From contig JAMCWF010000021.1 of assembly GCA_023481295.1 (NCBI GenBank), positions 1-49,511 on the forward strand: a DNA stretch of 49,511 nucleotides, read 5' to 3'. The position numbers and the translations under genes were made by a program. The DNA comes from Armatimonadota bacterium. Lineage in GTDB: Bacteria > Armatimonadota > Chthonomonadetes > Chthonomonadales > JAMCWF01. Below are positions 1,790 to 28,300 of this stretch, one piece after another. Below the pieces are notes generated by a model, which ran no database searches, was not told the DNA's origin, and worked only from the letters and a program-made list of their open reading frames with translations. How positions within the stretch are numbered: position 1 is the stretch's first letter; each line of letters starts with the position of its first letter.

Positions 1790-4081
1790 TCATTTGGATG
1801 CGATCGGTGCAACCGCCTTTCTCTTTTTCGTTGGGGCCGGCGCCACCCCACTGCCGTTGCGGCTGCCTTCAGGTGAGGCAATGGGAGTTGGTTGCCGTCT
1901 CAGGTCAGACGAGCGTCGAATCGCGGCCAGCAACCCCCCAAGCACGATCAAGACGGCGCCCAGCCATACCACACCGATGCCGGGCTTGTAGATCGCCTGC
2001 ATCCAAATCCTCACCGCGGCCGAGGGGGCCGGCATTCCAACCAATAAGAGCGCCACCTGCTGTGAATCGGCCATTAAGTCGGCCAGCTCAACCTTAATAC
2101 GGGGCTGGTCGGGAAGTGATGGCTCGTCAATCGGTTGCTTTTGGCCGTTCACTGACGGAATCAGAGTGTGAACTCCCTGCGGATCGGTGACCGTGATGAC
2201 TGCCCCGACCCGAAATTGGTTGGCGGTTTGGCCATGCTCGAACATTTTAAAGCCCTTAAACAGCCAAGTTGTACGGCCGATCTGAACCGGAACGCCGAGC
2301 TTCAAGAGGATGGTCGGTACGGAAGGATGGCTCTCTAATTGTGTGGGAGCCAGATAAAGATCGTAGAGTGCCGTTCGGTGAATGGCCGGTGAATTGACCC
2401 AGCCGTTCGCGGTGGAAGTGAGCGTCATCCGAGCGTTGTACGACTGCCGGTCACTGCGCAGCATCAGGTTGAGCTGCCGCTTAATTTGATGCAGTGTGGT
2501 CGGCTGATTGTGCAGACTTTGCAAGTTGAGCTGATAACCGAACGCGGTGGCTGGGTGCTCTGTCGCGACCGAGATGATCTGCTCGCGCTGATAGACGGTG
2601 GAGACAAACGCGCCGACTACCAGTAAGGCGGCACCGATGTGGGCGAGCTGAGCTCCGGTGCGGAGCGGCTGCCTATCCCGGTATCCGTGGTAAAGCCGGA
2701 TTGAGTTCCCGCTGATTGCAAATGCGGCCGCGCCGGTGCAGATCAGCCATACCCAAGAGTGTACGCCACAACCCCAGGCAATGGCGCAAACCAGCAGCGA
2801 GAAGTAGAGCGGCGGGATCAGTGTGGGCTTTATTTCAGAAGGGGGTACCGGTTTCCAGCCGATCAGCGGAGCGAGCGCCATTAAAACGCAGATGATGACG
2901 GCGGCGGGCGTGCTTACCCGATTATAGTAGCTCTGCGCCACCGCAAATGAATGGCCGAACTGCGCCATCATAATGGGGGCGACCGTTCCGCAAAGGATCG
3001 CAACCGCAAGCGCCAACAATACCACGACGGAGGCAACCATCAGAAAGCCCTTCGACAGCAGGGAGGTGTACGCCGGCTGAGTACGGATGCTTCGCGCGAC
3101 CCGCCGGTAGAGGAACAGCGCAATTACGGCAAACGCGCACGGGAATCCAATCATCAACTGATTAAATTGGGAGCCAGCTTGGCTGAACGAGTGCACCGAG
3201 GTATCGCCTAGTATTCCGCTGCGGGTCAAGTAGGTGGCCAGCAGGACCAGCAGGTAGGAGAGCACCGCCAGCGCATAGTTGGTCTTGTGGAAGGAGGAGG
3301 TCACCCGCTGGATGATCAGGCCATGCAGCAAAGCGGTCAGCACCAGCCAGGGGACCAGCGAGGAGTTTTCAACTGGATCCCATCCCCAGAAGCCGCCCCA
3401 GCCGAGCGTTTCGTAAGCCCAGTATCCGCCCAGAGCGATGCCGGCAAAGAGCGCCACCCAGCCGATAATGGCCCACGGCATCAACTTGGTAATCCAATCA
3501 TTGAAATCACGCTTTAGCAGTGAGCCGAGCGCCATCGCGAACGGCGCCGCCAGCAGTGCGTAACCCAGAAACAAAAACGGTGGATGAATGATCATCCAGA
3601 TATTTTGCAGCAACGGATTCAGGCCGCTTCCTTCGGTGGGAATCGGGCCGTGAAGGACGGCGAATGGGCTTTTGGAAATCAGCAGTACGATCAGGTAGAG
3701 CTGGGCGAGGAGAAAGAAGGGCATGCGATAAGGCTCGTCTTTGCCGGAGCTGAAGGCCAGCACAATGCCGACGACGGCGGTTAAAAGCGTCCATAAGAGC
3801 AGACTGCCCGATTGGCCGGCCCAGAGAGCGGAGATCAGCAGGGGGGTCGAGAGGTCGGAGGAGCTGTATTCGTAGACGTAGCTCACCTCGAAATGGTGAC
3901 CCAGAAACAGCATCAGCAGGCTGCCCATCGCAATGACGATGCCGGTTGCGGCCAACCCCAGGCTGAACCGGGCCAGCTTCAGGCTCTCTGCCTGCCCCCG
4001 CAAGACGGCGATGTAGGCGTAGCCGGCGACCAGTGTGGCGATCAGCGCGATATAGATTGCCGAATGGCCCATTGATATCAT
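1790..4081 (-). CDS. ccmF: cytochrome c-type biogenesis heme lyase CcmF/NrfE family
   Basis: 763-aa polytopic ORF with Trp-rich WWD motif WGGFWGWDPVENSSLVPW and a CcmF-like N-terminus and C-terminal region. SD GAGGT lies 8 nt upstream of the ATG. Confidence 0.85.
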   Translation of the reverse strand: MISMGHSAIYIALIATLVAGYAYIAVLRGQAESLKLARFSLGLAATGIVIAMGSLLMLFLGHHFEVSYVYEYSSSDLSTPLLISALWAGQSGSLLLWTLLTAVVGIVLAFSSGKDEPYRMPFFLLAQLYLIVLLISKSPFAVLHGPIPTEGSGLNPLLQNIWMIIHPPFLFLGYALLAAPFAMALGSLLKRDFNDWITKLMPWAIIGWVALFAGIALGGYWAYETLGWGGFWGWDPVENSSLVPWLVLTALLHGLIIQRVTSSFHKTNYALAVLSYLLVLLATYLTRSGILGDTSVHSFSQAGSQFNQLMIGFPCAFAVIALFLYRRVARSIRTQPAYTSLLSKGFLMVASVVVLLALAVAILCGTVAPIMMAQFGHSFAVAQSYYNRVSTPAAVIICVLMALAPLIGWKPVPPSEIKPTLIPPLYFSLLVCAIAWGCGVHSWVWLICTGAAAFAISGNSIRLYHGYRDRQPLRTGAQLAHIGAALLVVGAFVSTVYQREQIISVATEHPATAFGYQLNLQSLHNQPTTLHQIKRQLNLMLRSDRQSYNARMTLTSTANGWVNSPAIHRTALYDLYLAPTQLESHPSVPTILLKLGVPVQIGRTTWLFKGFKMFEHGQTANQFRVGAVITVTDPQGVHTLIPSVNGQKQPIDEPSLPDQPRIKVELADLMADSQQVALLLVGMPAPSAAVRIWMQAIYKPGIGVVWLGAVLIVLGGLLAAIRRSSDLRRQPTPIASPEGSRNGSGVAPAPTKKRKAVAPIASK

Positions 4082-4159
4082 CTTAACTTACCTCGCTTTC
4101 GCACTCCGCTCCGCAGAGCGATGCTTCGTATCACAGTGAATTTCAATCATATCAACCCA

Positions 4160-4202
4160 ATCATACGTTCCAATTGCAATCCAATGTATGACACGGGTCA
4201 TA
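4160..4202 (-). promoter_or_regulatory. candidate class-II Crp/Fnr-type promoter for ccmF: box TATGAC-N4-GTCATA plus -10 TATGAT
   Basis: The palindrome spans 4187-4202 (center 4194.5). The minus-strand hexamer TATGAT at 4165-4160 starts 29.5 nt from the center, which places the box at -41.5. The half-sites are identical to the box at 10792-10807. Confidence 0.5.
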
Positions 4203-4230
4203 TCTTTCATATCGCCTCATCTGTAAACCA

Positions 4231-6696
4231 TCAAGGCGAGGTTTTGCTGTGGCACATCGAGCAGAATTTCTGCCGATCATGGCACTTAAAACAAAAGCTG
4301 TTAGCCTTAAAGGAGGCCACCTTGGCGTGTGTCATCGACCAGTCGGCCGGGTGCGGCATCGGCGTCTGGTGGCACCGATCGCAACTGTTTTGGCCATGAC
4401 AGATGGCGCATACCTTTTCCTGTCCTTTCGCTGCGGTTGGATGGGTTTTCGGCCAATTCGCATCGTGCGATGCGGGCTTATGAGTTTGGTGGCAGGCCAT
4501 GCACTCGGAAGGTCGGTGGCAGCGCTTACAGAGTGACGGGCTTTGCAGCGCAATCGGCTCATGCCCCGACTGCATCCAACCGGCCGGATGCGGCATGGCG
4601 ATCCCATGGCAATTCACGCAAAAGTTCTGGACATGGCAGTTGGCGCAGACCGGCGATTGCATTGCAGCGGCCGAATGGGGACTTTGGGCCGTTTTCACCG
4701 GGCCGATCGGCGGCAACACCTTTCGGTTTAGCCAATCCGCCGGGTGCGGCATGTTGGTTCGATGGCAAGTCTGGCAAAAGGATGGTTTATGACAGGTGCT
4801 GCACCGTAAAGTTCCGCTCAATGCGAGCTTTCCGTGCCGCTTCATAAAATCGGGCGCCCGATGTGAGACAGGCCGCGCACCCTGATGACATTCGACACAA
4901 AAATCGGGGGTATGACACACGGTACACTTGTGAGTCGCCGTCAGTTTGCCGTGTATTTGCAAAAAATTCGCTTGCTGATGCGACGGCGGCCGTGCCCCAT
5001 GGTGACAGGTTCGGCAGAAGGTAGGTGTGTGGCAACGATAACATGTGGCCTTGTTTTTGATGGCGGCATTTCGATGCATCCTCAACCAATAGGGGCCATG
5101 CAGAAGCTTGCGATGGCACTGATCGCACTGTTGCCGAGAGTGGCAGACCAGGCAAAACTTGGGGTTGACGGCGGAAGCCCCGGCATGGAATCGCAACCAG
5201 TGATGGAGATGGGAATTGGGTTTGCGGTTGCGGTGACAGGCTTGGCAGAACCGGGGCTGATGGCATTCGGCGCAGGATTGGGGGTCTTTCATCACCTCAA
5301 ACCGATGATTGAGCATAAACCCTTCCTCCAGGTGTGATTGCGGCTCCGGCGGCCCGATCTGCGGCGTGGATGGCATGGTAGAGGTTGGGCGGATGCTTTG
5401 AATGAATGACACCATCGCCACGATCTCATGCTGATTCAACTGAGAGGGCGGCATGATCGAACGCGGGTTGAATCGGGTTGGGTTGAGCAGAACCTCCTCG
5501 ATCGTTTTTTTTGTGAGCTTGCCGCCGGTCGCCAAATCCGGCCCGGCGGTACCGCCACCGCCGTTTATCCCATGGCAGGCCTGGCAGTGCAAATCGAGAA
5601 AGAGCTTTTGACCTTCCTGCTGCAGTGGGGTTAACTTGGGTGCGCTTTCAATCGTTGGAAGCGATCTCAGCGAAAGTGCCGTCACCGCCACGAAGACGCT
5701 ACCGGCGAGGAAGATGGAAATGGGGCGTCGAGCCAGCTTTCGTTCCGGGTTGTGATCTAAATAGGGCACCAGGATGAAAGCCAGCAGGGTGATACCCGGA
5801 ATAACCATGCCACCGATGAACTCCCACTTGCCGGTGAAAAGGTGGGCCAGCTCAAAGAGGTAGAGGAAATACCAGTCGGTGTGAGCCGGATATGTGAGGT
5901 TGGGATTCGCGGGAGGCGTGAGGTGAAATCCCAAAATCAGCGTCGCCAGCATCAGTATCACAAAGAGCACCGCGCAGCAGATCATGATCTTCACCGTATG
6001 ATCCGGGTGAAACAGGAGCGGCTTTTCGACGTTCTGCTCATCATCCACCTGGCGCCACGGCGGCGTGATACCCTTCACCCTCACCTGAAAAACATGAAAG
6101 ACAAGCAAGATCACAAGTATGGTCGGCAAGAAAAAGACGTGAATCGCGTAAAACCGGGTCAAGGTCAGCGTGCCCACCGTAGGCTCGCCCAGGATGGCCG
6201 CCTTCAGCCAGTGACCCACAATCGGAAGCGAGCCGGCCAGGCTCATGCGGATGGTGGTGGCCCAATAGCCGTTTTGGTCCCAGGGCAGCAGCGAGCCGGT
6301 TATGGTGAAGGCCATCGTGATGGTTAGCAGCAGGATTCCAATCACCCAAACGATCTGGCGCGGCTTTTTGTAGGCTCCCCAGAGGAAAACCCGTAAAATG
6401 TGAACCCCGACCAAGAAGGCGATGGCATCGGTGGTGTAGTGATGAAGACTCAAGGCCACCCTTCCCCAATAGACGCTGCGGATAAATTGGATGCTGTCGT
6501 AGGCATGGTCAGGAGTCGGGGCATAGTAGAGTGCGAGAAAGATGCCGGTGACGAACTGGATCACGAGCAAAAATAGGATCACCGCCCCGATCGTCTGCGG
6601 CCAGCTTATACCGGACGGCAGCGGATACACCAGAAATCGTTCGATATCAGAGACCAGTCCGGTCTGATCATCAATCCAGCGAAGGATCTTCTTCAC
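4231..6696 (-). CDS. fusion protein: cytochrome b6-like + subunit IV-like + monoheme cytochrome c + 18-heme tandem-repeat cytochrome c
   Basis: 821 aa. The N-terminus has four conserved b-heme His in helices (SLHHY, GVHILR, YAIHVF, LVFHVF), LPWDQNGYW and a Qo-like TDWYF. CQACH with a downstream IMPP Met follows at residues 371-375, then 18 further CXXCH at residues 475-816. The GTG start lies 4 nt after the Rieske stop. Confidence 0.9.
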   Translation of the reverse strand: MKKILRWIDDQTGLVSDIERFLVYPLPSGISWPQTIGAVILFLLVIQFVTGIFLALYYAPTPDHAYDSIQFIRSVYWGRVALSLHHYTTDAIAFLVGVHILRVFLWGAYKKPRQIVWVIGILLLTITMAFTITGSLLPWDQNGYWATTIRMSLAGSLPIVGHWLKAAILGEPTVGTLTLTRFYAIHVFFLPTILVILLVFHVFQVRVKGITPPWRQVDDEQNVEKPLLFHPDHTVKIMICCAVLFVILMLATLILGFHLTPPANPNLTYPAHTDWYFLYLFELAHLFTGKWEFIGGMVIPGITLLAFILVPYLDHNPERKLARRPISIFLAGSVFVAVTALSLRSLPTIESAPKLTPLQQEGQKLFLDLHCQACHGINGGGGTAGPDLATGGKLTKKTIEEVLLNPTRFNPRSIMPPSQLNQHEIVAMVSFIQSIRPTSTMPSTPQIGPPEPQSHLEEGFMLNHRFEVMKDPQSCAECHQPRFCQACHRNRKPNSHLHHWLRFHAGASAVNPKFCLVCHSRQQCDQCHRKLLHGPYWLRMHRNAAIKNKATCYRCHTPTFCRTCHHGARPPSHQQANFLQIHGKLTATHKCTVCHTPDFCVECHQGARPVSHRAPDFMKRHGKLALSGTLRCSTCHKPSFCQTCHRTNMPHPADWLNRKVLPPIGPVKTAQSPHSAAAMQSPVCANCHVQNFCVNCHGIAMPHPAGWMQSGHEPIALQSPSLCKRCHRPSECMACHQTHKPASHDANWPKTHPTAAKGQEKVCAICHGQNSCDRCHQTPMPHPADWSMTHAKVASFKANSFCFKCHDRQKFCSMCHSKTSP
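4249..5274 (-). repeat. in-frame tandem array of nine diheme modules (about 37-52 aa each) inside the cytochrome b fusion gene
   Basis: The pattern CxxCH-x3/4-CxxCH-x3/5-(P)H-x3/5-(W/F)-x3-H recurs nine times, starting at residues 475, 515, 552, 591, 632, 684, 723, 763 and 802. Confidence 0.85.
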
Positions 6697-6700
6697 CCCT

Positions 6701-7195
6701 CTAGGCTCCTTTTATCTTGATCAGAATTCGGCCGCCGACTACCTTATAAGGAAATCGGTCCAATGGGCGCGGCGGCGGTCCCGCTACCACCTGACCCTTG
6801 ATGTTGTACATCCCGTTGTGGCAGGGACAGTAAAACACCTTTTTGTCGGGCTCCCAACGCACCGCACAACCGGCGTGAGTACAGACATTGGAAAACACGG
6901 TGAACGATTGAAGATTTTCGGCCACCACATAGACGGTTCCGCGAACGAGTTGATCCAGGTAGCCGTCCTGATGGTTGTAACGGTAGGTAAACGCGGTGGG
7001 AACGCCGAGCACCACATCGGTCAGCAGGCCGATATCCAGCCAGGTCTCCTTACGCCGTTTGAACGCGGGGAATAGGCTGAGCGCGACCATTGGGGCCGAA
7101 AGCAGGCCGACCAGTAAAAAACCAAATAGACCCACCAAATAGGAGAGGAATCGCCGCCTATTCGTTTTCCGATGGTTTGAATTCGGGTGTTTCAT
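6701..7195 (-). CDS. Rieske [2Fe-2S] protein with twin-arginine signal
   Basis: CTHAGCAV and CPCHNGMY cluster-binding boxes, and an NRRRFLSYL TAT motif. I place the start at the ATG at 7195 (GGAGG 7 nt upstream) rather than the ORF-track start at 7276, which lies inside a repeat element. Confidence 0.85.
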   Translation of the reverse strand: MKHPNSNHRKTNRRRFLSYLVGLFGFLLVGLLSAPMVALSLFPAFKRRKETWLDIGLLTDVVLGVPTAFTYRYNHQDGYLDQLVRGTVYVVAENLQSFTVFSNVCTHAGCAVRWEPDKKVFYCPCHNGMYNIKGQVVAGPPPRPLDRFPYKVVGGRILIKIKGA

Positions 7196-7237
7196 CCTAC
7201 ACCTCCTTAAACTCGAACCCACGCCGCTCGTATAGGT

Positions 7238-7384
7238 GGTTGCTGAAAAATACTGCAACACCCACCGGGTCGTCATTCCGTGGCCGCAAAGCGGAACCCG
7301 GAATCCAAGACATTGACATCGGACTGGATTCTCGCTTTCGCGTGAAAATCGTAGCGGCGGACTCCCGCCGGTTTTTCAATAACC
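7238..7384 (+). repeat. MITE-like modular palindromic repeat, copy B
   Basis: Termini are GGTTGCTGAAAAATAC (7238-7253) and the inverted GTTTTTCAATAACC (7371-7384). Internal hairpin modules are GTCGTCATTCCGTGGCCGCAAAGCGGAACCCGGAATCCAAG and a degenerate CTGGATTCTCGCTTTCGCGTGAAAATCG. Confidence 0.7.
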
Positions 7385-7404: not shown

Positions 7405-9495
7405 CTAGTCCCTCATTGGCTCGGCTTCATGAATATCCGTTCGCGTTAGCGGTGGCCGCTGCTTCATATGCTCCGCATACTCCAGTGGATGTTCTTCCTG
7501 CATCTGATGGAGTGATATTTTTCCGGTAATCCAGACTTGGCTCATCGGGAAGACGGAAGGATTGAAATGCACCCAATAGAGATGCCACGTAATGATCGCG
7601 ATAAAGGCTAGTAGCGCTTCAAAGCCGTGCATGACCAGCGCCATTTGCCATGCCCATAACGGGAGCCAGTGCAGGGCGGTGCTCATGAACCAGAGAATGG
7701 CGCCGGTCATCACCATCACGATCGTCCCCCAAGTTAGGGAGAGATACTCGAATTTCTCCGCGTAGCCGAACCGGCCGAATCGAGGGCGATCGGGGACCAA
7801 GCCAAAGTAGTATCGAAACTGATGGATGAAATCGTAAAGATCCTTACGATTTGGCATCAACATCATAACATCTCTCCGGGCTGACTTTGAAACGGCAAGG
7901 TAGATGAGATGGTAGATCGCGGCCGTAACCAGTAAGACCGCTCCGGCCCGGTGAAGCCATGCACGAAGCTCGAAACCGCCCGGAAATGAGAGCAGAAAGC
8001 GTGCCCAGTCCGTTTGTGAGTACTGCAGCAAGAATCCGCTCGCCATCAGGGTGCCCACGCTGATCAACAGGATGACGTGCTGAATTCTAACCTGCAATGG
8101 CATTCGCTCAACGTAAGTATTGGCCGGTGAGCTTTCATCGTCGTCCGCTCCCGATCGTGCCGCAGCGTGGTCCGTATCGATGGAATGTCCCGCCGGCGCG
8201 GAGGCGCCCATCCTTTTGCGCTTGGATTCGCGACGACGAGCCCAGAGATCCAGCCCAATCAACCCGAAGAAAAGGAGCGTCATAGACCAGATCACGACTC
8301 GGTAAAAGAGGGTCATCAGGTAAACGCCCAGGTTGCTCGCCGGAGTAACCTCCATATGTACCTCGCCCCGGGCGAAGTTAGCGCCGGCGTGTTTATGACA
8401 GCGGCCGCAGGTAGTCGGTATGTTCTTCGGATTGATGGATGAGCGGGGATCCGAGGCGGGCAGAATTTCGTGAGCGCGGTGACAGGTTGCGCAATTGGCA
8501 ACCGTCACGATCCCGTAGGTCAAAGCCGTCCCATGGTAGGAGCTTCGGAAGGTCGAAAGCCGATCGGTCGGCAGCCCGAAGCGCAGGTCAATCGCTTTGT
8601 TGGCGTGGCAGCGACCGCAGGTGTTGGGGATATTGGTCGGATATACGGAGGAAGTGCGGTCGGTGGGCGCCCGGATGGTATGCTCCCCATGACAGTCGGT
8701 GCACACCGGAGCGGCCTTCACTCCCTTTAAGAACGCCTGACCATGCACCCCGGCCAAGTAGTGCGTGAGCTTATCCGGGTGGCAGCGGCCGCAGGTTCGC
8801 GGTATATTATTTCGGGCAACCGATGAGCTGGACACGCCGGCCGGTTGAATATCGTGGGCACGGTGACAATCGGTGCATACGGCGGCGCGGTTCATTCCCT
8901 GTCCCAACAGCAACTGGCCATGCACGCTTTTTTCATACTCTAGTAAAACATGTCCCTTCGGAATGCGAAATCGGTCAACCAGTCGCGGGTTGTTGTGGCA
9001 GTGAGCGCAGGTAAAGGGAATGTTTTGCCGGTTAACCTTCGAACGTGGGTCCGAAGCCGGCAAAATTTCATGCCGGCCATGGCAGGTAGCGCAGGTAGGA
9101 GCCAAGGTGGTGTGCTCCGCAACCGCAATCTGATGGTGGATGCTCAATTTAAAGCGATGAGCGATGTCGGCAAACCGAGCGGCGAGTCCGCTGTTTTTAA
9201 GGTGACAATTAACACAATTCACCGGTTGGGCGGTGGCAGGGTGAGGCAGGCGATTGGCGCTGAAATCACGGTGGCAATCGGTGCACTTTAAATTGCGATG
9301 AACCGATTGGCGGTAGCGTGCCGGATCTATGTAACCGCTTACGATCGTTCGCGAATGACAGCTCAAGCAGACGCGGTTGGTAGAGGGGCTGGTTTCACCT
9401 CTTGCCGGCAATTCCGACAGCATCACCATTAAAAGAATTGGTGCATGCACCCACCACGCTAACCGCGTACGGTGCGTGGTTATCATCGTTTTCAC
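7405..9495 (-). CDS. CbcL-like membrane cytochrome: periplasmic 11-CXXCH multiheme domain fused to a FdnI/HydC-type b cytochrome
   Basis: 696 aa with a signal peptide and 11 CXXCH, including four repeats of CxxCHxxHxI...NIPxTCxxCH. A TM helix and a charged linker follow, then a 4-helix domain with conserved His (RIQHVI, WLHRAG, IYHLIY, VMHGFE, TWHLYWVH). Confidence 0.8.
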   Translation of the reverse strand: MKTMITTHRTRLAWWVHAPILLMVMLSELPARGETSPSTNRVCLSCHSRTIVSGYIDPARYRQSVHRNLKCTDCHRDFSANRLPHPATAQPVNCVNCHLKNSGLAARFADIAHRFKLSIHHQIAVAEHTTLAPTCATCHGRHEILPASDPRSKVNRQNIPFTCAHCHNNPRLVDRFRIPKGHVLLEYEKSVHGQLLLGQGMNRAAVCTDCHRAHDIQPAGVSSSSVARNNIPRTCGRCHPDKLTHYLAGVHGQAFLKGVKAAPVCTDCHGEHTIRAPTDRTSSVYPTNIPNTCGRCHANKAIDLRFGLPTDRLSTFRSSYHGTALTYGIVTVANCATCHRAHEILPASDPRSSINPKNIPTTCGRCHKHAGANFARGEVHMEVTPASNLGVYLMTLFYRVVIWSMTLLFFGLIGLDLWARRRESKRKRMGASAPAGHSIDTDHAAARSGADDDESSPANTYVERMPLQVRIQHVILLISVGTLMASGFLLQYSQTDWARFLLSFPGGFELRAWLHRAGAVLLVTAAIYHLIYLAVSKSARRDVMMLMPNRKDLYDFIHQFRYYFGLVPDRPRFGRFGYAEKFEYLSLTWGTIVMVMTGAILWFMSTALHWLPLWAWQMALVMHGFEALLAFIAIITWHLYWVHFNPSVFPMSQVWITGKISLHQMQEEHPLEYAEHMKQRPPLTRTDIHEAEPMRD

Positions 9496-9677: not shown

Positions 9678-10673
9678 TTAAGTTGTCGGCTTAGTAAACA
9701 GATGGCGGCCTTGCGGCATATGGCAATCGGAGCACTTTGCATCGGCGGCGCCCTTGTGTTGTTGAATATGGGCGGCCGGGTCGGTAATTTGCGCTTTGTG
9801 GCAGGTCAAGCACAACTGGTTGGTCGGCTGCCGGAGCTGATCGGGTTGATTGGTATTTCCGTGCGGATCGTGGCAGGTAATACAGGTAATGCCCGCCGCG
9901 TAGTGCTTACTCTGGATGTAATCGTTGTACTGCTGGTTGCGCCCGGGGCCGGTTACCTGAGCCAGGGTGAAGGCGGCGGTCAAATCATCTCCCGGCCGGA
10001 ATGAGGCTGGAAACGGATGACCGTCTTTGTCCTTCCCCACCGAATGGCACTGGCCGCAGATCATATCCTGCCGCTGCGGAGGCAGATCCTTCGGCATCAG
10101 GATGGTTTGCTTAGCGATGTCCAGCTTTTGCGCGTCGGGGGCGGAAACCATCTTAGCCAGGTGATTGCTGCCGGGACCGTGACACATCTCGCAGCCGACC
10201 CCCATGTCCACCCAAGTGTCGTTTGACACATCAAATCCGGTCGTATGGCAACGCACGCACTGAGTCTTTGCATCCACTGGCTCCACCTTTATCCAAGACT
10301 TCGTTGCCACGTCCCACTCGGCCGGCAAAAGCTGGAAATTTGAATCCAGATAGGCTTGCTGCCGATGTCCCACGCCGAGAACGTAAGCCACTTTGTCTTT
10401 GGTAAATGGGGCGGAGCTGAAATCGGCCACGATTGCGCTGGCATTGGATGCCGTCTGCATGGCGGAGTAGTGAGCGGTTTGAACGTAGGAGGCGACGATG
10501 GTTTTTGAAATATCCATGGTGCGGTGGCACATCATACAAATCTTAGTGCCCTTGTAGGTGGCGGCCGTTTGCGTGCTGGAGGCGGCGATGCTAGCGCCCA
10601 GGGCAATCAGCGCCCCCATAATGATGGGGTACTTCACCCCGTTACCGAACTGTTTGATTGTGTTCAATTTCAC
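9678..10673 (-). CDS. secreted heptaheme c-type cytochrome (c554-like CxxCHGPGSxH motif)
   Basis: Seven CXXCH (CMMCH, CVRCH, CEMCH, CGQCH, CITCH, CLTCH, CSDCH). I prefer the GTG at 10673, which follows GGAGGA and yields a signal peptide (VKLNTIKQFGNGVKYPIIMGALIALGASIAA). The ORF-track start at 10745 is the alternative. Confidence 0.75.
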   Translation of the reverse strand: MKLNTIKQFGNGVKYPIIMGALIALGASIAASSTQTAATYKGTKICMMCHRTMDISKTIVASYVQTAHYSAMQTASNASAIVADFSSAPFTKDKVAYVLGVGHRQQAYLDSNFQLLPAEWDVATKSWIKVEPVDAKTQCVRCHTTGFDVSNDTWVDMGVGCEMCHGPGSNHLAKMVSAPDAQKLDIAKQTILMPKDLPPQRQDMICGQCHSVGKDKDGHPFPASFRPGDDLTAAFTLAQVTGPGRNQQYNDYIQSKHYAAGITCITCHDPHGNTNQPDQLRQPTNQLCLTCHKAQITDPAAHIQQHKGAADAKCSDCHMPQGRHLFTKPTT

Positions 10674-10781: not shown

Positions 10782-10817
10782 CCTTCGATTGTATGACGGT
10801 TGTCATACAATCGAAGG
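10782..10817. promoter_or_regulatory. perfect 16+16 bp palindrome with core TATGAC-N4-GTCATA; candidate Crp/Fnr-type operator
   Basis: The sequence is CCTTCGATTGTATGAC-GGTT-GTCATACAATCGAAGG. It overlaps the regulator stop codon (10803-10805). The minus-strand hexamer TATGCT at 10769-10764 starts 30.5 nt from the center. No U-tract follows on either strand. Confidence 0.5.
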
Positions 10818-11597
10818 AAGCGGGCAAAGCGGCTGATCTGAATCACAGCTTTCGTCAACGAATGATTTCAGCGCGTTAAGATGCATGATGACGATCTTAT
10901 TGCACCGGTGGCAGTATGAGTCAATGCCGCAAAGGCGGCAGCCTTTTGGGACCAGTTTCCCGTGGATGGTGCAGATGTACCCTGCCTTCGTCAGGCGGCT
11001 CAACACCCGAATGGTCGTTTCCACCGTGGTGCCGGCCATGTCGGCGATCTCGTGGCGGGTGAGTGGAGTGGTAATCAAGGCGCGGTCGTTGCTTTGAACG
11101 CCGGTTATTTTCGCCAAGTAGATCAACAGGTGTGCGATGCGCTTGTCCACCGCTTCGGTGACTAAAAATCGGAGCATTTCCTGGGTATAGCAGAGACGGC
11201 GTGACACCGCTGCAATGAGACGCTTGGCAAAGAGAGGAGATTGATCGATGGTCTTAACCACCTGGCTATGAGGAATGAAAAGTGCGGTCATCGGCGTGAT
11301 TGCGACCACCGAGGAGGTGTAAATCCGGTCCACCAAAAAGAGGCAAACTTCGCCGAAAATATCGCCTGGTTTCAGGATCGCGACCGTTATATCGCGTCCG
11401 AGCGCTGAGTGCTTGACCACCTTGGCGCGACCCCGAAGGATAACGCCGATTGCGAAGGCTTCGCTCCCTTCGCTGAAAACCTCTACACCCGGCTTGTATT
11501 TGCGCTCGGTAACTTGTGATTCAAGCTGCGCTATCTCCTCAATCGGCATATCGGCCAGGATCGGAACGCTCTGCAAAAAAGCCAACCGGTCCGACAT
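10803..11597 (-). CDS. Crp/Fnr-family transcriptional regulator with C-terminal CxxC-x5-CxxC insertion
   Basis: 264 aa with a cNMP-binding-like beta-roll and an HTH (TRHEIADMAGTTVETTIRVLSRL). The extra motif C220-RL-C223-GIDSY-C229-HR-C232 is encoded at 10902-10940. Confidence 0.85.
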   Translation of the reverse strand: MSDRLAFLQSVPILADMPIEEIAQLESQVTERKYKPGVEVFSEGSEAFAIGVILRGRAKVVKHSALGRDITVAILKPGDIFGEVCLFLVDRIYTSSVVAITPMTALFIPHSQVVKTIDQSPLFAKRLIAAVSRRLCYTQEMLRFLVTEAVDKRIAHLLIYLAKITGVQSNDRALITTPLTRHEIADMAGTTVETTIRVLSRLTKAGYICTIHGKLVPKGCRLCGIDSYCHRCNKIVIMHLNALKSFVDESCDSDQPLCPLPSIV

Positions 11598-11738
11598 ACT
11601 ATCACCTTCTTCACACTATTCATCAGTTGATTCATTGCGAGAATGCCGGTTTTCACATTAATCCACGTTGTCCGTTAGCCGTTATGGTCAGAAATCCAGC
11701 CGCTGCGCTTATTGCGGGAGGGATTTCATTTTTTCAAT

Positions 11739-11754
11739 TGTGAATTATAACACA
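11739..11754. promoter_or_regulatory. CRP-like near-palindrome TGTGA-N6-ACACA; its spacer carries a minus-strand TATAAT
   Basis: TGTGAATTATAACACA matches TGTGA-N6-TCACA at 9 of 10 positions. The reverse complement of 11744-11749 is TATAAT, a possible -10 for the regulator gene. Confidence 0.35.
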
Positions 11755-11759
11755 GATCG

Positions 11760-11771
11760 TGATTTAAATCA
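11760..11771. promoter_or_regulatory. FNR-like box TGAT-N4-ATCA (perfect 12-bp palindrome TGATTTAAATCA)
   Basis: Read directly from the sequence. It lies in the AT-rich spacer upstream of the Crp/Fnr gene. Confidence 0.35.
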
Positions 11772-11801
11772 TATCATTTGCCATCTTCAACTTAAACTAT
11801 A

Positions 11802-11813
11802 TGATTTATATCA
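11802..11813. promoter_or_regulatory. FNR-like box TGAT-N4-ATCA (TGATTTATATCA)
   Basis: Second copy, centered 42 bp from the first (four helical turns). Confidence 0.35.
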
Positions 11814-11913
11814 TACTTTACCGACCAATGCAAGTGGATGACCTCTTTCAAATCACCGAAAAGGCGAAAAACGCTCAATTCATTGGATTTGCGATACTGG
11901 CACTCCATGAGGT

Positions 11914-12110
11914 GGTTGTTGAAAAATACGGTAACCACCTTCGGGCCGTCATTGCGGGGCCGCAAACATGTCCCCGCGTAGGCGGGGAGCGGCACCCGGA
12001 AGTCGGCGCATCAGCATCCCGGCCTGCCGGTAGGGAGGGGACTGGATTCCCGCTTTAGCGGGAATGACGAGGGGGGACGGGAATGACGAAGTGGCATGCT
12101 CCAGCAACTT
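11914..12110 (+). repeat. MITE-like modular palindromic repeat, copy C
   Basis: Starts with GGTTGTTGAAAAATACGGTAAC. The left hairpin module carries a nested extra hairpin (GTCCCCGC-GTAG-GCGGGGA). The right module is CTGGATTCCCGCTTTAGCGGGAATGACG (12042-12069), followed by a partial duplicate CGGGAATGACG. Confidence 0.7.
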
Positions 12111-12220
12111 TCGCTATTTCCATTCCATAGAGGAAAACCCGGCCTTCATCGCTGAATATCACAGCAAAAGTTTGAGGTATCAGCCTCTGCAATACGATCT
12201 CGAATTGGAGGTGCGGTAAG

Positions 12221-12808
12221 ATGGCAGCCATCATTTTAGCAGGAGGAGTGAGCAGCCGGATGGGGCAGGACAAGGCGATGCTGATGTTTGATGGCCAGAC
12301 CCTGCTGGAGCGAGCGGTGAGAATTGCGGCCGATGTCAGCCGGCCGGTATGGATAGTGGCCAATCGAGCCGGTCATTACCATGTGCATGGAGCGACCGTC
12401 ATCGGCGATGGGTACCCTGGCGAAGGGCCGTTGGGCGGGCTGATCACCGGCTTGAAGGCGGCCGGCCCTGGAGTTCACATCGCAATGGCCTGCGACACGC
12501 CGCTGATGGAGCCGAAGGTATTTTCGCTGCTCTTGTCGAAAATAGGTGAGCACGATGCCGCCCTCTTTAAGCTGGGGGATGGATTGCAGCCGCTTGGAGC
12601 GGCGTATCGCGACAAAGCCCTGCCGTCACTGATCGCCTCCTTCGAGGCTGGAAATAGGGCGCTCCATATCGCCGTCAAATCACTGGATGCGGTGATTTTA
12701 GGCGACGATGAGCTGCTTCTGGTGGATCCGGCCGTGCTGAACTTCACCAATATCAACGATCTCGATGATTACGCCGATCTTTTAGGCGAGCCGAATGAAG
12801 AGCTGTAG
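12221..12808 (+). CDS. mobA: molybdenum cofactor guanylyltransferase
   Basis: N-terminal ILAGGVSSRMGQDKAML signature, 195 aa, GGAGG SD upstream. Confidence 0.8.
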   Translation: MAAIILAGGVSSRMGQDKAMLMFDGQTLLERAVRIAADVSRPVWIVANRAGHYHVHGATVIGDGYPGEGPLGGLITGLKAAGPGVHIAMACDTPLMEPKVFSLLLSKIGEHDAALFKLGDGLQPLGAAYRDKALPSLIASFEAGNRALHIAVKSLDAVILGDDELLLVDPAVLNFTNINDLDDYADLLGEPNEEL

Positions 12809-12841
12809 GTCTAATAATTTCCGTATGGGGGTTGCCGGACG

Positions 12842-15445
12842 ATGGGTAGAAAGGACATTATGATGGGAATCGTGTCAATCGCGATGATGGTTGCACTGCT
12901 GGCTTTGGCGGCGGCTGCGGAAGCGGATACCGATTCGATGTTTCCCTTCGTCATTCCTTGGAGCGATGCCAGCAAAACGGTTACCAACGTTTCGTTCCTA
13001 AATGACGGGCCGGCCGGCTCGCACGGCTATATCGTGGTGAAGAACGGCCACTTCGTTGAAAGCGATACCGGCAAGCGGATTCGGTTTTTGGGTGTAAACC
13101 TGGTTGCCGGCAGTGCATTTCCCAATCACGCCGATGCCCGAATCGTGGCGAGAAGGCTGGCAAAGTACGGTGTGAACCTGGTTCGGCTGCACCATATGGA
13201 TAACTGCTGGAACAACCCAAAGGGCACCATTTGGAATCTCAACTACTCGGATCATCGCCATATCAATCCCCAGCAGCTCGATCGCCTCGACTACCTGATC
13301 TATCAACTGAAGCGCCACGGCATCTATGTGAATATCAACCTGCACGTTTCGCGGCAATTCTCACCGGCAGACGGATTTCCGGCCAGCGTCAACGACATCC
13401 CCTTTTCATTCGATAAGCGGGTGGATTACTTTGATCCCAGAATGATCGAGTTGCAAAAGGAGTACGCCCACCAGCTTTTGACTCATGTCAATCCCTACAC
13501 CCATACCGCCTATACCGATGAGCCGGCGGTGCTCAACGTGGAGCTGACCAACGAGGATTCGCTGGTCGGCGATCCATGGTCCTCGTTGGGGCATGGACTG
13601 AAGGAACTCCCGCAGCCGTTTTTGGGCGAGTTGCAGCAGCTCTGGAATCGGTGGTTGGCACATCGATATGGCACCACCGCTAAATTACAAACAGCCTGGT
13701 TGAAAAATGTCGCCCCGCCCGGTCCTGATCTATTGAAAAGCGTCACCGATCTACCAAGCTGGGCGCTCGAACAGCACCGCAACACTAAAGCTAACCTCAG
13801 CAATGAGGGCGATGCGCTCAGGGTCGATGTCGTTCAAACGGACAGCACCGACTGGCACCTTCAGCTTCACCAAGCCGAGTTGAACATACAAGACGGCTAC
13901 ACCTACACGGTTCGCTTCCGGGCGCGCGCAAACCCCGCCCGCGAGATGCCGGTCTATACTTCACTCGATGAACCGGACTGGCATCACATCGGGCTGGAGG
14001 TAACCGCCCACCTGACGCCTGAATGGAAGCAGTACACCTATTTCTTTACCGCCCGCCATACCGTGCCCGATCATTCGCGACTCGTCTTCGTGCTGGGCAA
14101 TCAGACCGGTGAGGTGGAATTGGCTCAAGTCAGGCTGAGCGCCGGCGTGGAGGGCGGTGATCTGCAGCCCGGCCAGTCCTGGACGAATGGTACCATCCCG
14201 ATCCCGGACGGCGGGTTGCCGAAGCAGTGGGCCGATTGGATCGCTTTCCTTACTCATATCGAGCGGGCATATAACCATCAGATGCGCGATTACTTGAAAA
14301 ACGATCTCCACCTGCATGCCAGCATCATCTGCAGCCAAATTTCCTATGGTGGGCTGTCCGGGCCTTATCGCGAAGATGCAAGTGAGTTCGCCGACGACCA
14401 TGCCTATTGGGAGCATCCCAGCTTTCCGCACCGACCATGGGATCCGGTGGACTGGTTCATCGGTAATACCTCCATGGTTCCAGCCATTGGCCATAGCGAT
14501 ACCCTCACCGCAATGGCGGAGTATCGGATCGCCGGCAAGCCCTTTACCGTAAGCGAGTACAACCATCCTGCCCCCAACGACTATCAGTCGGAGTGCGTCC
14601 CGCTCTATGCCTCCTTTGCCGCCTTTCAAGATTGGGATGCCATCTATCTGTTTGACTACGGGAGCTATGGCGCCAATGCCGCCAACGACCAGATACAGAG
14701 CTATTTTGGAGTGGGATCCAATCCGGCAAAATGGGCCTTTATGCCGGCCGCCGCCATGATTTTTCGTGATGACGAGATCACACCGGCGGGCGAGTCGGTT
14801 ACGGTCTCCATTCCAGCCGAGAGCTATGAAGCGGAGCTGGCACAGTTTCCGACCGCCTACGATCTCTGGGACCACTATGGGATAAGCCGTAAAACGACCC
14901 TGTCGCGAAGAATGGGCATCCAGATGGCCAGCGACACCGGGATTCGAAAATCCGGCAAGTCTGGAAATTCGATGCTTGAATGCGTGAACAGCGACCCGGC
15001 CACCGCATTCTACACGGCCGACGCACCGGCGGCGAAGGTGGTGGTGGGCTTTATCGGCGGTCGAACGGTAACGGTGGGGAGGGTGCGATTTGAATTCGGC
15101 GACACTCCGCACCACTTTGCCGCCCTGATCTTGAACTCAATGGACCGAAAACCGCTATCCGAAAGCAGCCGAATTTTACTGACGGCGGCCGATCGGGTGG
15201 AAAACACCGGTATGGTCTGGAACGCAGCTCATAATAGCGTCAATAACAACTGGGGAACCGCGCCCTCCCTCGCCGATGGCGTGCCGGTGGCGATCACCAT
15301 GCCGGTGAGCGGTCTACGAAAGGTCTACGCATTGACGGATACCGGGGCGTTAGGCCAGGAAGTTCCAAGCACCTATCAGAACGGCGACATCACGTTTACG
15401 GCCGGCCAGAGCTACCGGACGCTGTGGTATGCGATCGTGAAGTAG
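12842..15445 (+). CDS. secreted GH5-like (TIM-barrel) glycoside hydrolase with an inserted CBM-like beta-sandwich
   Basis: 867 aa with a signal peptide. Putative acid/base in VELTNEDS and nucleophile in FTVSEYNHP. The central segment (ALRVDVVQTDSTDWHLQL...VELAQVRLS) resembles CBM4/9-type modules. Substrate is unknown. Confidence 0.6.
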   Translation: MGRKDIMMGIVSIAMMVALLALAAAAEADTDSMFPFVIPWSDASKTVTNVSFLNDGPAGSHGYIVVKNGHFVESDTGKRIRFLGVNLVAGSAFPNHADARIVARRLAKYGVNLVRLHHMDNCWNNPKGTIWNLNYSDHRHINPQQLDRLDYLIYQLKRHGIYVNINLHVSRQFSPADGFPASVNDIPFSFDKRVDYFDPRMIELQKEYAHQLLTHVNPYTHTAYTDEPAVLNVELTNEDSLVGDPWSSLGHGLKELPQPFLGELQQLWNRWLAHRYGTTAKLQTAWLKNVAPPGPDLLKSVTDLPSWALEQHRNTKANLSNEGDALRVDVVQTDSTDWHLQLHQAELNIQDGYTYTVRFRARANPAREMPVYTSLDEPDWHHIGLEVTAHLTPEWKQYTYFFTARHTVPDHSRLVFVLGNQTGEVELAQVRLSAGVEGGDLQPGQSWTNGTIPIPDGGLPKQWADWIAFLTHIERAYNHQMRDYLKNDLHLHASIICSQISYGGLSGPYREDASEFADDHAYWEHPSFPHRPWDPVDWFIGNTSMVPAIGHSDTLTAMAEYRIAGKPFTVSEYNHPAPNDYQSECVPLYASFAAFQDWDAIYLFDYGSYGANAANDQIQSYFGVGSNPAKWAFMPAAAMIFRDDEITPAGESVTVSIPAESYEAELAQFPTAYDLWDHYGISRKTTLSRRMGIQMASDTGIRKSGKSGNSMLECVNSDPATAFYTADAPAAKVVVGFIGGRTVTVGRVRFEFGDTPHHFAALILNSMDRKPLSESSRILLTAADRVENTGMVWNAAHNSVNNNWGTAPSLADGVPVAITMPVSGLRKVYALTDTGALGQEVPSTYQNGDITFTAGQSYRTLWYAIVK

Positions 15446-15498
15446 GCTCGACCCTCGAGAGAACCATCACCGATTAAGAATAGTCTGAGTTATCGGCA

Positions 15499-15605
15499 GA
15501 GTATTTGAAAAATCCTCCCCGATGTAGGGGCACGTTGCAACGTCCCCCGAATCTGGATTTCCACTTCGCTGGGAATGACGATTAGCATCCTTCGCTGATA
15601 CTATT
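15499..15605 (+). repeat. MITE-like modular repeat, copy G (short, degenerate)
   Basis: GTATTTGAAAAATC terminus, hairpin GGGGCACGTTGCAACGTCCCC, and a degenerate right module CTGGATTTCCACTTCGCTGGGAATGACG (15553-15580). Confidence 0.55.
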
Positions 15606-15733
15606 AACCCGACAATAGCATGGCGTATCGGCGTGGCTTGCCGGCGGAGTAACCGGGCGGTTAATATTTAATGCAGCCTGAGCAAACTGCGACATCGTTT
15701 GGATTATCCGTTGTGACCCAAAACGTTCTTTAC

Positions 15734-15839
15734 CGCTCGCTGACGCTCACGGCTCGGATGGGCGTTTCGAGACCGGCGGAGTAAAACGCTTCCGAAACGA
15801 TAAAGACGCAACCGTCGGAGCTACGAGCGTCAGCGAGCG
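15734..15839. repeat. long inverted repeat: perfect 15-bp arms separated by 76 nt
   Basis: CGCTCGCTGACGCTC (15734-15748) pairs with GAGCGTCAGCGAGCG (15825-15839). Imperfect pairing continues inward. Confidence 0.6.
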
Positions 15840-15953
15840 ATTATTGATCTGACGCGCGATCATTGTTTAAAGATTACGGTACAACATTGCCGGAGTACTA
15901 GCATACCCACATAATACAGCGAAAAGCGGGAAATAATAGGCTCTTGATCGGTC

Positions 15954-16847
15954 TTATCTCAATTCCGAGATCGAATTCGATGCCGAGCCCGATCCCAATC
16001 GAACCCGCCGGCTGCATCGCCAGCGCCGCTGATAGTACTCCTCCGATAAGGAGCTTATGTGGACCCCCCAATTCCCGGAGGAGTGGATGAAGTGGCCGCT
16101 GCCGATTGCCATTCCGACGTGGGTGATGGTGCGCCTGCGGTAATCAGGCTGGTCCGGCCCGAAAAAGACGAGGTCACCCGCCTGCAGATCGGCCGATGGA
16201 ACGCTGGCCGCTTCCACCCATTCGGATTGCAGATAGGCGTCCCGCGGCAGGAGAATACCATGCTGGCGGTAGATGCGCTGGGTAAATCCGGAACAATCAA
16301 TCCCGAAGGTAGAGACCCCACCCCATAGATAGGGGACTCCCAGCAGCCGCATTCCCGTCTCAATCACGCGCCGGACATTGGGGCGGCGGGTTTCGGGTAT
16401 CGGTGCGAGATCCTTTCGCTTTACTCGCCCGGTCCGGCCGTCAGGCAGCGTCACCATGGCTATTCGATCCATTTCAAACTCCACCATCACCCTCGAGCCC
16501 ATTGCCAGGATCGTTATAGGCTGATCGTGATGTTCGATCTCCCACAGCGTGGCATAGGCGTTCCGGATTTGGGCAATAGTAGGATAACCGATATAGTGAT
16601 TTGGAAGGCGGGGCGGCGCCTCTTCCTCCGCCAGGCTGCTTGCCCAAATCCAGCCGGTGTAACCGTCTTCGGTGTGAGACTCCAAAAATCCGCTCCGTTC
16701 GGATTGCGCCTCAACCCACTCACCCATTAGCGCTTGGCTGATCCTTTCCGAGCGAATATCGGGTTCCACCCGCATATCGGTGACCGCGCGGATGACGATT
16801 CTTCGAGATGGCATAACGTCCCTCTTTACAATTCGGACCTGGCACAT
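15954..16847 (-). CDS. NlpC/P60 (C40) cell-wall peptidase with N-terminal SH3b-like region
   Basis: Catalytic Cys context DCSGFTQRIYRQHGILLPRDAYLQ and the downstream His segment ITHVGMAIG. Confidence 0.75.
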   Translation of the reverse strand: MCQVRIVKRDVMPSRRIVIRAVTDMRVEPDIRSERISQALMGEWVEAQSERSGFLESHTEDGYTGWIWASSLAEEEAPPRLPNHYIGYPTIAQIRNAYATLWEIEHHDQPITILAMGSRVMVEFEMDRIAMVTLPDGRTGRVKRKDLAPIPETRRPNVRRVIETGMRLLGVPYLWGGVSTFGIDCSGFTQRIYRQHGILLPRDAYLQSEWVEAASVPSADLQAGDLVFFGPDQPDYRRRTITHVGMAIGSGHFIHSSGNWGVHISSLSEEYYQRRWRCSRRVRLGSGSASNSISELR

Positions 16848-17066
16848 TCAACTCAGCCAGGTTATCGGATATGGACTATATTTTATCGCAAGTACCAGCC
16901 ATGCCGGAGGGCAATCAGCCAAAATACAGGCCGTACCGATGAATTTCGTTTAATTGGTTGATGGAGCGCCAGCCGGGTTGTTACTTAAAATTGCTAGTGG
17001 GCGAGCAGCGGAGCTTGAAATTCTTGATCCGGCGCATCCGAATTATGCTATGGGATGGCTATGAGA

Positions 17067-17247
17067 GGTTGTTGAAAAAGTCACTGGAGTACGCCGCTTC
17101 GTCATTTTCGCCCCACCTCGTCATTCTCGCGAAAGCGGGAATCCAGTTCATTGCCCATCGGCAGCCAAATGTGCTGATTTTCTGGATTCCAGGTTTCGCT
17201 TTGCGACCCCGGAATGACGACCCAGTGATGTTACCGTATTTTTGAAC
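17067..17247 (-). repeat. MITE-like modular palindromic repeat, copy D (inverted relative to B, C and E)
   Basis: Terminus GGTTGTTGAAAAAG (17067-17080). CGTCATTCTCGCGAAAGCGGGAATCCAG (17119-17146) is the reverse complement of the right module, and CTGGATTCCAGGTTTCGCTTTGCGACCCCGGAATGACGACCC (17182-17223) is the reverse complement of the left module. The other terminus is GTTACCGTATTTTTGAAC (17230-17247). Confidence 0.7.
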
Positions 17248-17311
17248 ATGCTCTTAACGTGGATTCATTTCGATTGACGATGGCATCAAAAATCGGTTAT
17301 GCTCTTAGGTC

Positions 17312-24461: not shown

Positions 24462-24491
24462 GGGCGATCGGTTGGGTTGTTGGAGGGCTGT

Positions 24492-28117: not shown

Positions 28118-28300
28118 GGATTGACAAATACGGTAATAGCCGCGGGTCGTCATTTCGGGGCCGCGAAGCGGAACCCGGAATCCAGAACCTCAGCACCCAT
28201 ACCGGTCGGTCGGCAGGGGACTGGATTCCCGCTTTCGCGGGAATGACGAAGTGTGGCGGGAATGGCGTAGCGGCGGCTTCCGGCGAGCTTTGCAACAACC
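28118..28300 (+). repeat. MITE-like modular palindromic repeat, copy E (best-preserved)
   Basis: Left terminus GATTGACAAATACGGTAATA. Left hairpin GGGTCGTCATTTCGGGGCCGCGAAGCGGAACCCGGAATCCAG (28144-28185). Right hairpin CTGGATTCCCGCTTTCGCGGGAATGACG (28221-28248) plus a partial duplicate. Right terminus TTTGCAACAACC (28289-28300). Confidence 0.7.

Follow-up and report, generated by a model that had tools for sequence, protein, structure and literature searches.

A predicted CRP/FNR-family operator in front of a CcmF-like haem-lyase gene of an Armatimonadota bacterium

The 49,511-nucleotide contig JAMCWF010000021.1 (assembly GCA_023481295.1) of an Armatimonadota bacterium, analysed here as a whole and referred to as the window, carries a cluster of genes for multihaem cytochromes. 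Between the last gene of the cytochrome operon and a gene for a CcmF-like haem lyase lies a 16-bp palindrome, box 2 (4187-4202), and the question is what this palindrome does in front of the lyase gene. We consider it likely that the CRP/FNR-family regulator encoded at 10803-11597 uses box 2 as an operator, binding as a dimer about 41.5 bp upstream of a start near 4153, from where it would drive the CcmF-like gene in the class II manner. The operator reading is supported because motif statistics, a cognate regulator, conservation of the half-sites, association of the motif with the regulator's recognition helix, promoter spacing and a recurring regulator-box-ccmF linkage agree.

Box 2, its candidate promoter and their recurrence

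Box 2 reads TATGACACGGGTCATA (TATGAC-ACGG-GTCATA, centre 4194.5, no strand). It is a perfect dyad with TGA and TCA cores 6 bp apart, as in CRP/FNR-family operators, and fits the family motif derived below. An earlier note on this DNA had called it the second of two identical boxes, and TATGAC-N4-GTCATA (TATGACNNNNGTCATA) does match exactly only at 4187-4202 and at 10792-10807 (box 1) in the window; 100 dinucleotide-preserving shuffles gave no match, with 0 expected. Boxes 1 and 2 have in common the 12 half-site bases and a TG on one flank, and differ in their spacers and other flanks. Three exact boxes of the form ATGAY-N4-RTCAT occur in the window, all within an 8-kb cluster.

On the minus strand, the candidate -10 hexamer TATGAT (4165-4160) starts 29.5 nt from the centre of box 2 and predicts a start near 4153 (G) or 4152 (A). 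At the -35 position, 17 nt upstream of this hexamer, stands TACATT, which matches TTGACA at 2/6 positions and adjoins the promoter-proximal half-site; the weak or absent -35 element overlapped by an operator that characterizes class II promoters is thus what we found. Box 2 starts 29 nt past the open reading frame of the cytochrome b-c fusion gene (which ends, stop codon included, at 4231), and its centre is 113.5 nt from the ATG of the CcmF-like gene at 4081. The Shine-Dalgarno element of that gene, GAGG (4094-4091, minus strand), lies in a stretch, GCGAGGTAAGTTAAGATG, that is identical in a sister species. These coordinates agree with the earlier placement of the box 29 nt past the cytochrome b stop and 113 nt before the ccmF ATG, with TATGAT 29.5 nt from its centre. 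The class II geometry claimed with them is supported in that the 29.5-nt spacing is a family-wide one; the position of "exactly -41.5" assumes that the hexamer spans -12 to -7 and that transcription starts near 4153.

The motif and its spacing were derived from 80 metagenomic loci (L098-L177) chosen solely by the peptide GTTVETTIR of the regulator's recognition helix. In an unbiased count, the commonest palindromes of the 5+N4+5 type were ATGAT-N4-ATCAT (32) and ATGAC-N4-GTCAT (26), and the commonest with a spacer of six was TATGA-N6-TCATA (32). The remaining top entries were GC-rich background words, and by our own estimate the chance expectation for a given 5-mer palindrome is well under one. 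Exact ATGAY-N4-RTCAT boxes were present in 56 of the 80 loci, many of which are mutually related so that the counts overstate independence, and almost always stood downstream of the regulator gene. Their density was 17 per 100 kb, 13-fold above the 1.3 per 100 kb of unrelated control loci (1.2 Mb), and eleven loci carried two boxes. Position frequencies gave the family consensus yATGAY-N4-RTCATw. A hexamer of the form TAnnnT was located 28.5-30.5 nt from the box centre in 43 of the 52 distinct contexts (28.5 nt in 24, 29.5 nt in 15 and 30.5 nt in 4); this peak was confined to the strand of the downstream gene, and other offsets and the opposite orientation were at background. Such spacing, combined with a poor -35 element, is the predicted anatomy of a class II activator-dependent promoter. 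A full-text literature search found no description of the motif, which is a weak negative since motifs often appear only as logos.

The sister species, represented by contigs of GCA_021842405.1 and GCA_027392375.1 (loci L002-L007), has this cluster too, from the regulator gene through ccmF, with protein identities of 87-92% (91% for cytochrome b). Box 2, box 1 and two boxes upstream of the regulator gene (boxes A and B) are all kept there, with 46/48 half-site and 9/16 spacer positions identical in intergenic DNA that is otherwise 76-82% identical. At a background of 80%, the half-site figure has a chance of about 0.002 by a binomial estimate. The sister copy of box 2 is TATGAC-CGGC-ATCATA, in which 11/12 half-site and 2/4 spacer positions are conserved, and the TATGAT of 4165-4160 is kept. 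Constrained half-sites around a free spacer are expected of a dimeric DNA-binding protein, not of an RNA stem. A 222-bp insertion resembling a miniature inverted-repeat transposable element (MITE) separates the cytochrome b stop from box 2 in the sister species, and box, hexamer and leader are intact. A composite scan of the window and the sister loci for a box with up to 3 mismatches plus hexamer returned only the two exact boxes and a few 3-mismatch matches that we consider to be chance.

The linkage also recurs at a greater distance. In loci L183/L184, a regulator 44-45% identical to that of the window, with the same four-cysteine (Cys4) insertion discussed below, is encoded 185 nt ahead of a CcmF-like orthologue of 766 aa (48% identical over 720 residues). 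The L183 spacer contains TATGATGCCGGTCATA at 1271-1286; from its centre the distance is 29.5 nt to the start of TAAGAT and 75.5 nt to the ATG. This box and hexamer constitute the only visible ccmF promoter. The same box and hexamer are present 76 nt past the regulator stop in L179/L180, just before the contig end. Judged from these gene orders, the haem lyase is a conserved direct neighbour, and putatively a target, of the Cys4 regulator clade, and the link between regulator and ccmF is older than the cytochrome operon.

The regulator could bind box 2 without class II activation, in order to repress the gene or block read-through, or it could modulate a promoter formed by a second TATGAT at 4151-4146 (minus strand); we regard this as improbable. 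That alternative -10 is the one picked by a generic sigma-70 scan, with TTGGAA at 4173-4168, a 16-nt spacing, a TG extension and a 9/12 match. Moreover, no terminator lies between the cytochrome b gene and box 2, so a bound protein would be in the way of elongating polymerase, and box B is apparently in a repressing position, so the regulator may repress too. However, with the 4151-4146 hexamer as -10, box 2 would be centred at -55.5, which is unusual for activation by CRP or FNR; the usual activating positions are -41.5, -61.5, -71.5 and so on. This hexamer is probably not the -10 of the regulated promoter, because the sister species has AACGGT there yet keeps 4165-4160. The family spacing of 28.5-30.5 nt likewise fits 4165-4160, as does the arrangement in L183, where no other ccmF promoter is visible.

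The two copies of TATGAT (4165-4160 and 4151-4146) form a direct repeat on the minus strand, 14 nt apart. Boxes A and B have the repeated hexamer as their half-site, and the two copies form a degenerate third palindrome, TATGAT-TGGG-TTGATA, an arrangement that is not kept in the sister species.

The regulator and its Cys4 clade

The regulator gene (10803-11597, minus strand) is located 6.6 kb upstream of box 2 and adjoins the cytochrome operon, with its stop codon inside box 1. Its 264-aa product matches PF00027 (3e-17), PF13545 (3e-13) and PF00325. The best relatives in the PDB are CRP proteins, and an AlphaFold 2 model has the canonical CRP fold at a predicted local distance difference test (pLDDT) score of 78. 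The recognition helix, GTTVETTIRVLS, is FNR-like (V-E-T-T-I-R) and invariant among homologues that are otherwise 27-38% identical. The earlier note had called the palindrome an FNR/CRP box. This stands as far as the family is concerned, since a CRP/FNR-family regulator is encoded in the cluster, but the regulator is not FNR proper. The N-terminal cysteine cluster of FNR proper is absent, with no cysteine in the first 84 residues; the cysteines of the regulator cluster at 219-232, after the helix-turn-helix. The helix carries E-x-x-I-R and not E-x-x-S-R, and the outer position of the box is A and not T, with C/G or T/A at the inner position of the half-sites in the window and the family. All NCBIfam models score the protein far below their cut-offs, and its identity to any named member is low. 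The regulator may thus work like an FNR-type activator without being FNR.

It is quite doubtful that box 2 is instead used by another CRP/FNR paralogue encoded elsewhere in the genome, such as a global anaerobic regulator. The visible portion of the genome is 49.5 kb only, within which the regulator gene is the only one of the CRP/FNR type and the CcmF-like gene the only ccm gene. Box 2 keeps the TGA-N6-TCA core that is common to the whole family (PMC1274295), and the ATCA half-site variants of boxes A and B and of the sister box 2 come near the classic FNR box. Nevertheless, the motif tracks regulators with exactly the GTTVETTIR helix and occurs mostly just downstream of their genes. The regulator-box-ccmF linkage recurs in L183/L184 and, minus ccmF, in L179, and the boundaries of the cluster in both species run from regulator to ccmF. 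These observations favor the regulator encoded at 10803-11597 as the protein that would bind box 2.

Between the two wing strands after the helix-turn-helix, the regulator has a 20-residue Cys4 insertion, CRLCGIDSYCHRC (residues 213-233). An exhaustive profile-free search, which returned one 50%-identical relative, and a follow-up search identified a clade of 7 sequences at 40-92% identity, including P0137, P0287-P0290 and L002 4926-5720. All clade members share the pattern P-[KR]-[GN]-C-x2-C-x6-C-x-R-C-x-K-I, and regulators outside the clade that have the identical recognition helix carry no such insertion. At pLDDT <50, the AlphaFold model says nothing about this region. The insertion may be a zinc or iron-sulfur site on the DNA-binding domain, a structural zinc being equally possible. 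We offer only tentatively, as a rather unlikely proposal, that this is an undescribed CRP/FNR clade in which the CxxC-x6-CxxC of the wing tip holds a metal centre sensitive to redox, O2 or haem status, that its conserved core target is a stand-alone CcmF-like lyase, and that a dedicated sensor on the DNA-binding domain itself, and not a global anaerobic regulator, would thereby set the capacity for cytochrome c maturation. In a further locus (L181, 10001-14590 of a 415-kb metagenomic contig), a Cys4-clade regulator is convergent to genes for a 1088-aa cytochrome and a Rieske protein, an arrangement that again ties the clade to Rieske/cytochrome complexes.

The genes behind the boxes of the wider family were named from Shine-Dalgarno-supported open reading frames and Pfam. 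They encode DUF1858, ScdA_N and DUF2249/TusA proteins, ferredoxins and a multicopper oxidase, as do those in loci fetched via individual homologues, and one relative had been automatically named "nitrogen oxide reductase regulator" by the Joint Genome Institute. This neighborhood is of the nitrosative-stress or denitrification type and looks like a nitric oxide (NO)-stress or denitrification regulon, of which we found no published description. In two loci (L108, L157), a family regulator is followed by a multihaem cytochrome that is 29% identical to the first operon gene of the window, and no recognizable box was found in either. Given the targets of the family and the Cys4 insertion, the signal for the window regulator is probably redox state, O2 or NO.

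The other boxes, repeats and genes of the cluster

Box 1 (10792-10807, no strand; TATGACGGTTGTCATA, TATGAC-GGTT-GTCATA) overlaps the stop codon of the regulator gene and is the core of a 36-nt perfect palindrome with 16-bp arms (10782-10817). A candidate -10 for the cytochrome operon, TATGCT (10769-10764, minus strand), starts 30.5 nt from its centre and is kept in the sister species. When window 10782-10817 is compared with L002 5706-5741, the half-sites of box 1 are identical, the spacer is reverse-complemented (on the gene strand, AACC vs GGTT) and conservation does not extend to the long arms; the 36-nt palindrome was therefore rejected as the real unit at box 1. The spacer reversal is a putative signature of a hairpin-loop flip or of arm conversion.

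Relaxing the inner half-site base to Y/R reveals the third exact box, box A (11800-11815, no strand), and a one-mismatch box, box B (11758-11773, no strand), both upstream of the regulator gene. Box A reads TATGAT-ATAA-ATCATA on the minus strand (TATGAT-TTAT-ATCATA on the plus strand) and, at about -70.5, precedes box B by 42 bp. Box B, TATGAT-TTAA-ATCACG on the minus strand, is centred at about -28.5, 16.5 nt upstream of the regulator gene's candidate -10. This -10 (11749-11744, minus strand) is a perfect TATAAT with a TG extension (TGTTATAAT) and is kept in the sister species. There, box A is identical at 16/16 positions amid diverged flanks, and box B (TATGAT-TTAG-ATCATG) has improved symmetry. 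The two boxes look like sites of autoregulation, with box B as the proposed site of autorepression.

A role of the box 2 palindrome in RNA, where it would form a 3' stem-loop and serve as terminator, stabilizer or processing site, is very improbable. Box 2 does lie 29 nt past a stop codon, and box 1 of the window can form a hairpin with a 16-bp stem (-30.1 kcal/mol, z -8.9). By contrast, the hairpin of box 2 has -4.5 kcal/mol (z -0.64; 50/200 shuffles as good) and is without a U-run, and in the sister species its closing G is changed to A without compensation, leaving -1.7 kcal/mol. The hairpin of the sister box 1 is reduced to -10.6 kcal/mol (z -1.3). In addition, there was no match in Rfam, and an RNA element would not hold a fixed distance to a downstream TAnnnT.

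Least credible of all is that box 2 has no function, having arisen by chance or as a piece of a dispersed repeat: a MITE-like repeat is indeed dispersed in the genome, with copies near both promoter regions, but its sequence contains no box, boxes 1 and 2 share no flanks beyond 2 nt, none of the 100 shuffles yields even one match, and conservation is specific to the half-sites.

The MITE-like repeat is about 220 bp long, with terminal inverted repeats TTGTTGAAAAAT ... TTTTTCAACAA and internal tandem units of GGGAATGACGAAG. Copies are located at approximately 7240-7308, 11916-12111, 17065-17248 and 28121-28300 in the window and at 12495-12716, 9346-9458 and 600-653 in L002; strain L007 is short of one 13-nt unit. 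Between window 11598-16847 and L002 1-4925, the orientation of a mobA-like gene plus a glycoside-hydrolase-like gene of 867 aa (12221-15445) is reversed. An NlpC/P60 gene directly adjoins the regulator gene in the sister species, and in the window the MITE copy at 11916-12111 is at the inversion junction.

All genes from 11597 down to 1790 are on the minus strand. The first operon gene (9678-10673) begins with GTG at 10673, preceded by the Shine-Dalgarno sequence GGAGG, and encodes a 331-aa multihaem cytochrome c with 7 CxxCH motifs. It is followed by genes for a 696-aa multihaem cytochrome c fused to a cytochrome b561-type domain (7405-9495, 11 CxxCH), a Rieske iron-sulfur protein (6701-7276) and, as the last operon gene, an 821-aa cytochrome b-c fusion with a multihaem C-terminus (4231-6696, 19 CxxCH), making 37 CxxCH sites in the operon. 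The nearest relatives of the cytochrome b protein bear the labels Armatimonadota or Abditibacteriales.

The proposed target of box 2 follows after a gap of 149 nt (1790-4081). It encodes a 763-aa haem lyase of the CcmF/NrfE family, recognized by Cytochrom_C_asm PF01578 (5e-32), CcmF_C PF16327 (6e-27) and the WWD motif WGGFWGWDPVEN. The NCBIfam nrfE and ccmF models match it below their trusted cut-offs, and it is therefore a divergent member. A C-terminal region of about 230 residues (~530-763) extends past the Pfam CcmF_C match, finishes with another hydrophobic segment and a basic tail, and is kept in the L183 orthologue. Housekeeping genes make up the remainder of the window, with dnaA, an RND efflux system and an ECF sigma factor. 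With dnaA at 24477-25874, the chromosomal origin may be close; cumulative GC skew is without a clear turning point.

Proposed regulation and comparison with known systems

Several points weigh against box 2 being the operator of a regulated ccmF promoter. A sigma-70-like promoter (TTGGAA-16-TATGAT) sits just downstream of its hexamer, a paralogue might be the protein that uses it, and the relatedness of the family loci has been mentioned above. No terminator was detectable between the cytochrome b stop and ccmF in a scan of 3900-4400; much of the ccmF mRNA may therefore come from read-through, and the box 2 promoter is probably a supplementary, not the sole, source of ccmF transcripts. Regulator-to-ccmF synteny was present in 0 of the best 80 loci in an alignment of the cytochrome b fusion across 185,579 species genomes, and was seen in the sister loci L002-L007 alone; a locus with a cytochrome b of 56% identity (L010) has neither regulator nor ccmF. 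Full synteny is thus limited to two species, and the footprint on box 2 rests on one comparison plus one distant relative. The Cys4-clade loci L181 and L182 are without an exact box, L178 being too short to judge. Finally, most members of the family adjoin nitrosative-stress genes and not cytochromes, which means that their signal is not simply transferable to the window regulator.

A co-regulated ccmF promoter, as proposed in the earlier note, is nonetheless supported by a regulator in the cluster, a palindrome of the type that goes with its helix, the family spacing and the regulator-box-ccmF link in a distant relative. Under this model, a signal would cause the regulator dimer to bind boxes 1 and 2 at about -42. 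At box 2, the site would stand in for the missing -35 element and the bound dimer would recruit RNA polymerase, switching on the CcmF-like haem-lyase gene; box 1, likewise over a putatively defective -35 element, would be used to switch on the operon of cytochrome, Rieske and cytochrome b genes. In this way, 37 c-type haem attachment sites and the lyase serving them would be raised together by one signal, and the regulator would tune its own synthesis through boxes A and B. That it is this particular protein which binds, that it activates and does not repress, where transcription starts and what the signal is are all predictions from sequence.

If true, this would amount to a regulatory map of a respiratory cytochrome cluster in an uncultured lineage, with one local regulator, four operators, two activated units and autoregulation, and the haem lyase would be a direct, evolutionarily conserved target of a CRP/FNR-type regulator. 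Furthermore, yATGAY-N4-RTCATw with TAnnnT 28.5-30.5 nt downstream would be a rule usable on metagenome bins to predict the regulons of the widespread subfamily of GTTVETTIR regulators. The arrangement is standard class II promoter control in kind and will not surprise the specialist; the less ordinary aspects are confined to the Cys4-wing clade and the linkage of this clade with a haem lyase.

The closest parallel is given by the class II promoters of Escherichia coli FNR (nrfABCDEFG, dmsA, narG), where a TGA-N6-TCA inverted repeat lies about 41.5 bp upstream of the start over a poor -35 element and is bound by a dimeric activator. The site is TTGAT-N4-ATCAA there and TATGAY-N4-RTCATA in the predicted promoter here. 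In E. coli FNR, an N-terminal cluster of cysteines (Cys20, 23, 29 and 122) ligates a [4Fe-4S] centre. The window regulator differs in that it is without this cluster and has E-x-x-I-R in place of E-x-x-S-R, the latter being the FNR-type motif (Matsui 2013, PMC3590769). The nrfABCDEFG operon, which includes the CcmF paralogue NrfE and strictly requires FNR, likewise places this paralogue under the same control as a multihaem cytochrome (PMC12285233). There, the lyase gene shares the operon promoter only, whereas the lyase gene of the window has a box of its own.

HcpR and DNR resemble the window system in having an FNR-like palindrome with an N4 spacer and a regulator gene that adjoins its targets. 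The HcpR box is wyTTGACnnnnGTCAArw and the DNR box is CTTGATnnnnATCAAG (Rodionov et al. 2005, PMC1274295). The position that determines specificity is T in FNR-like, HcpR included, and G in CRP-like boxes (PMC1274295), and it is A in the window box. Relatives of the window regulator with the same helix are near genes for DUF1858, ScdA_N, DUF2249, ferredoxin and copper oxidase proteins, a nitrosative-stress type of setting comparable to those regulons. In the window, by contrast, the targets would be a haem lyase and respiratory cytochromes; hcp, nor and nir are not among them.

The Fnr of Bacillus, which recognizes a CRP-like site, is similar in that its cysteine cluster comes after the DNA-binding helix and is not N-terminal. 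In B. subtilis, three C-terminal cysteines and an aspartate hold an O2-labile [4Fe-4S] centre that is needed for DNA binding (PMC3520743). The pattern is a terminal C-x4-C-x2-C-x3-C there, in contrast to the CxxC-x6-CxxC between the wing strands of the window regulator. Lastly, TTHB099 (TAP) of Thermus thermophilus (PDB 5I2D, a class II transcription activation complex; E 3.6e-08 to the window regulator) is a non-proteobacterial CRP-family activator at a class II position. It is a distant relative with a different site sequence and serves as a mechanistic model only.

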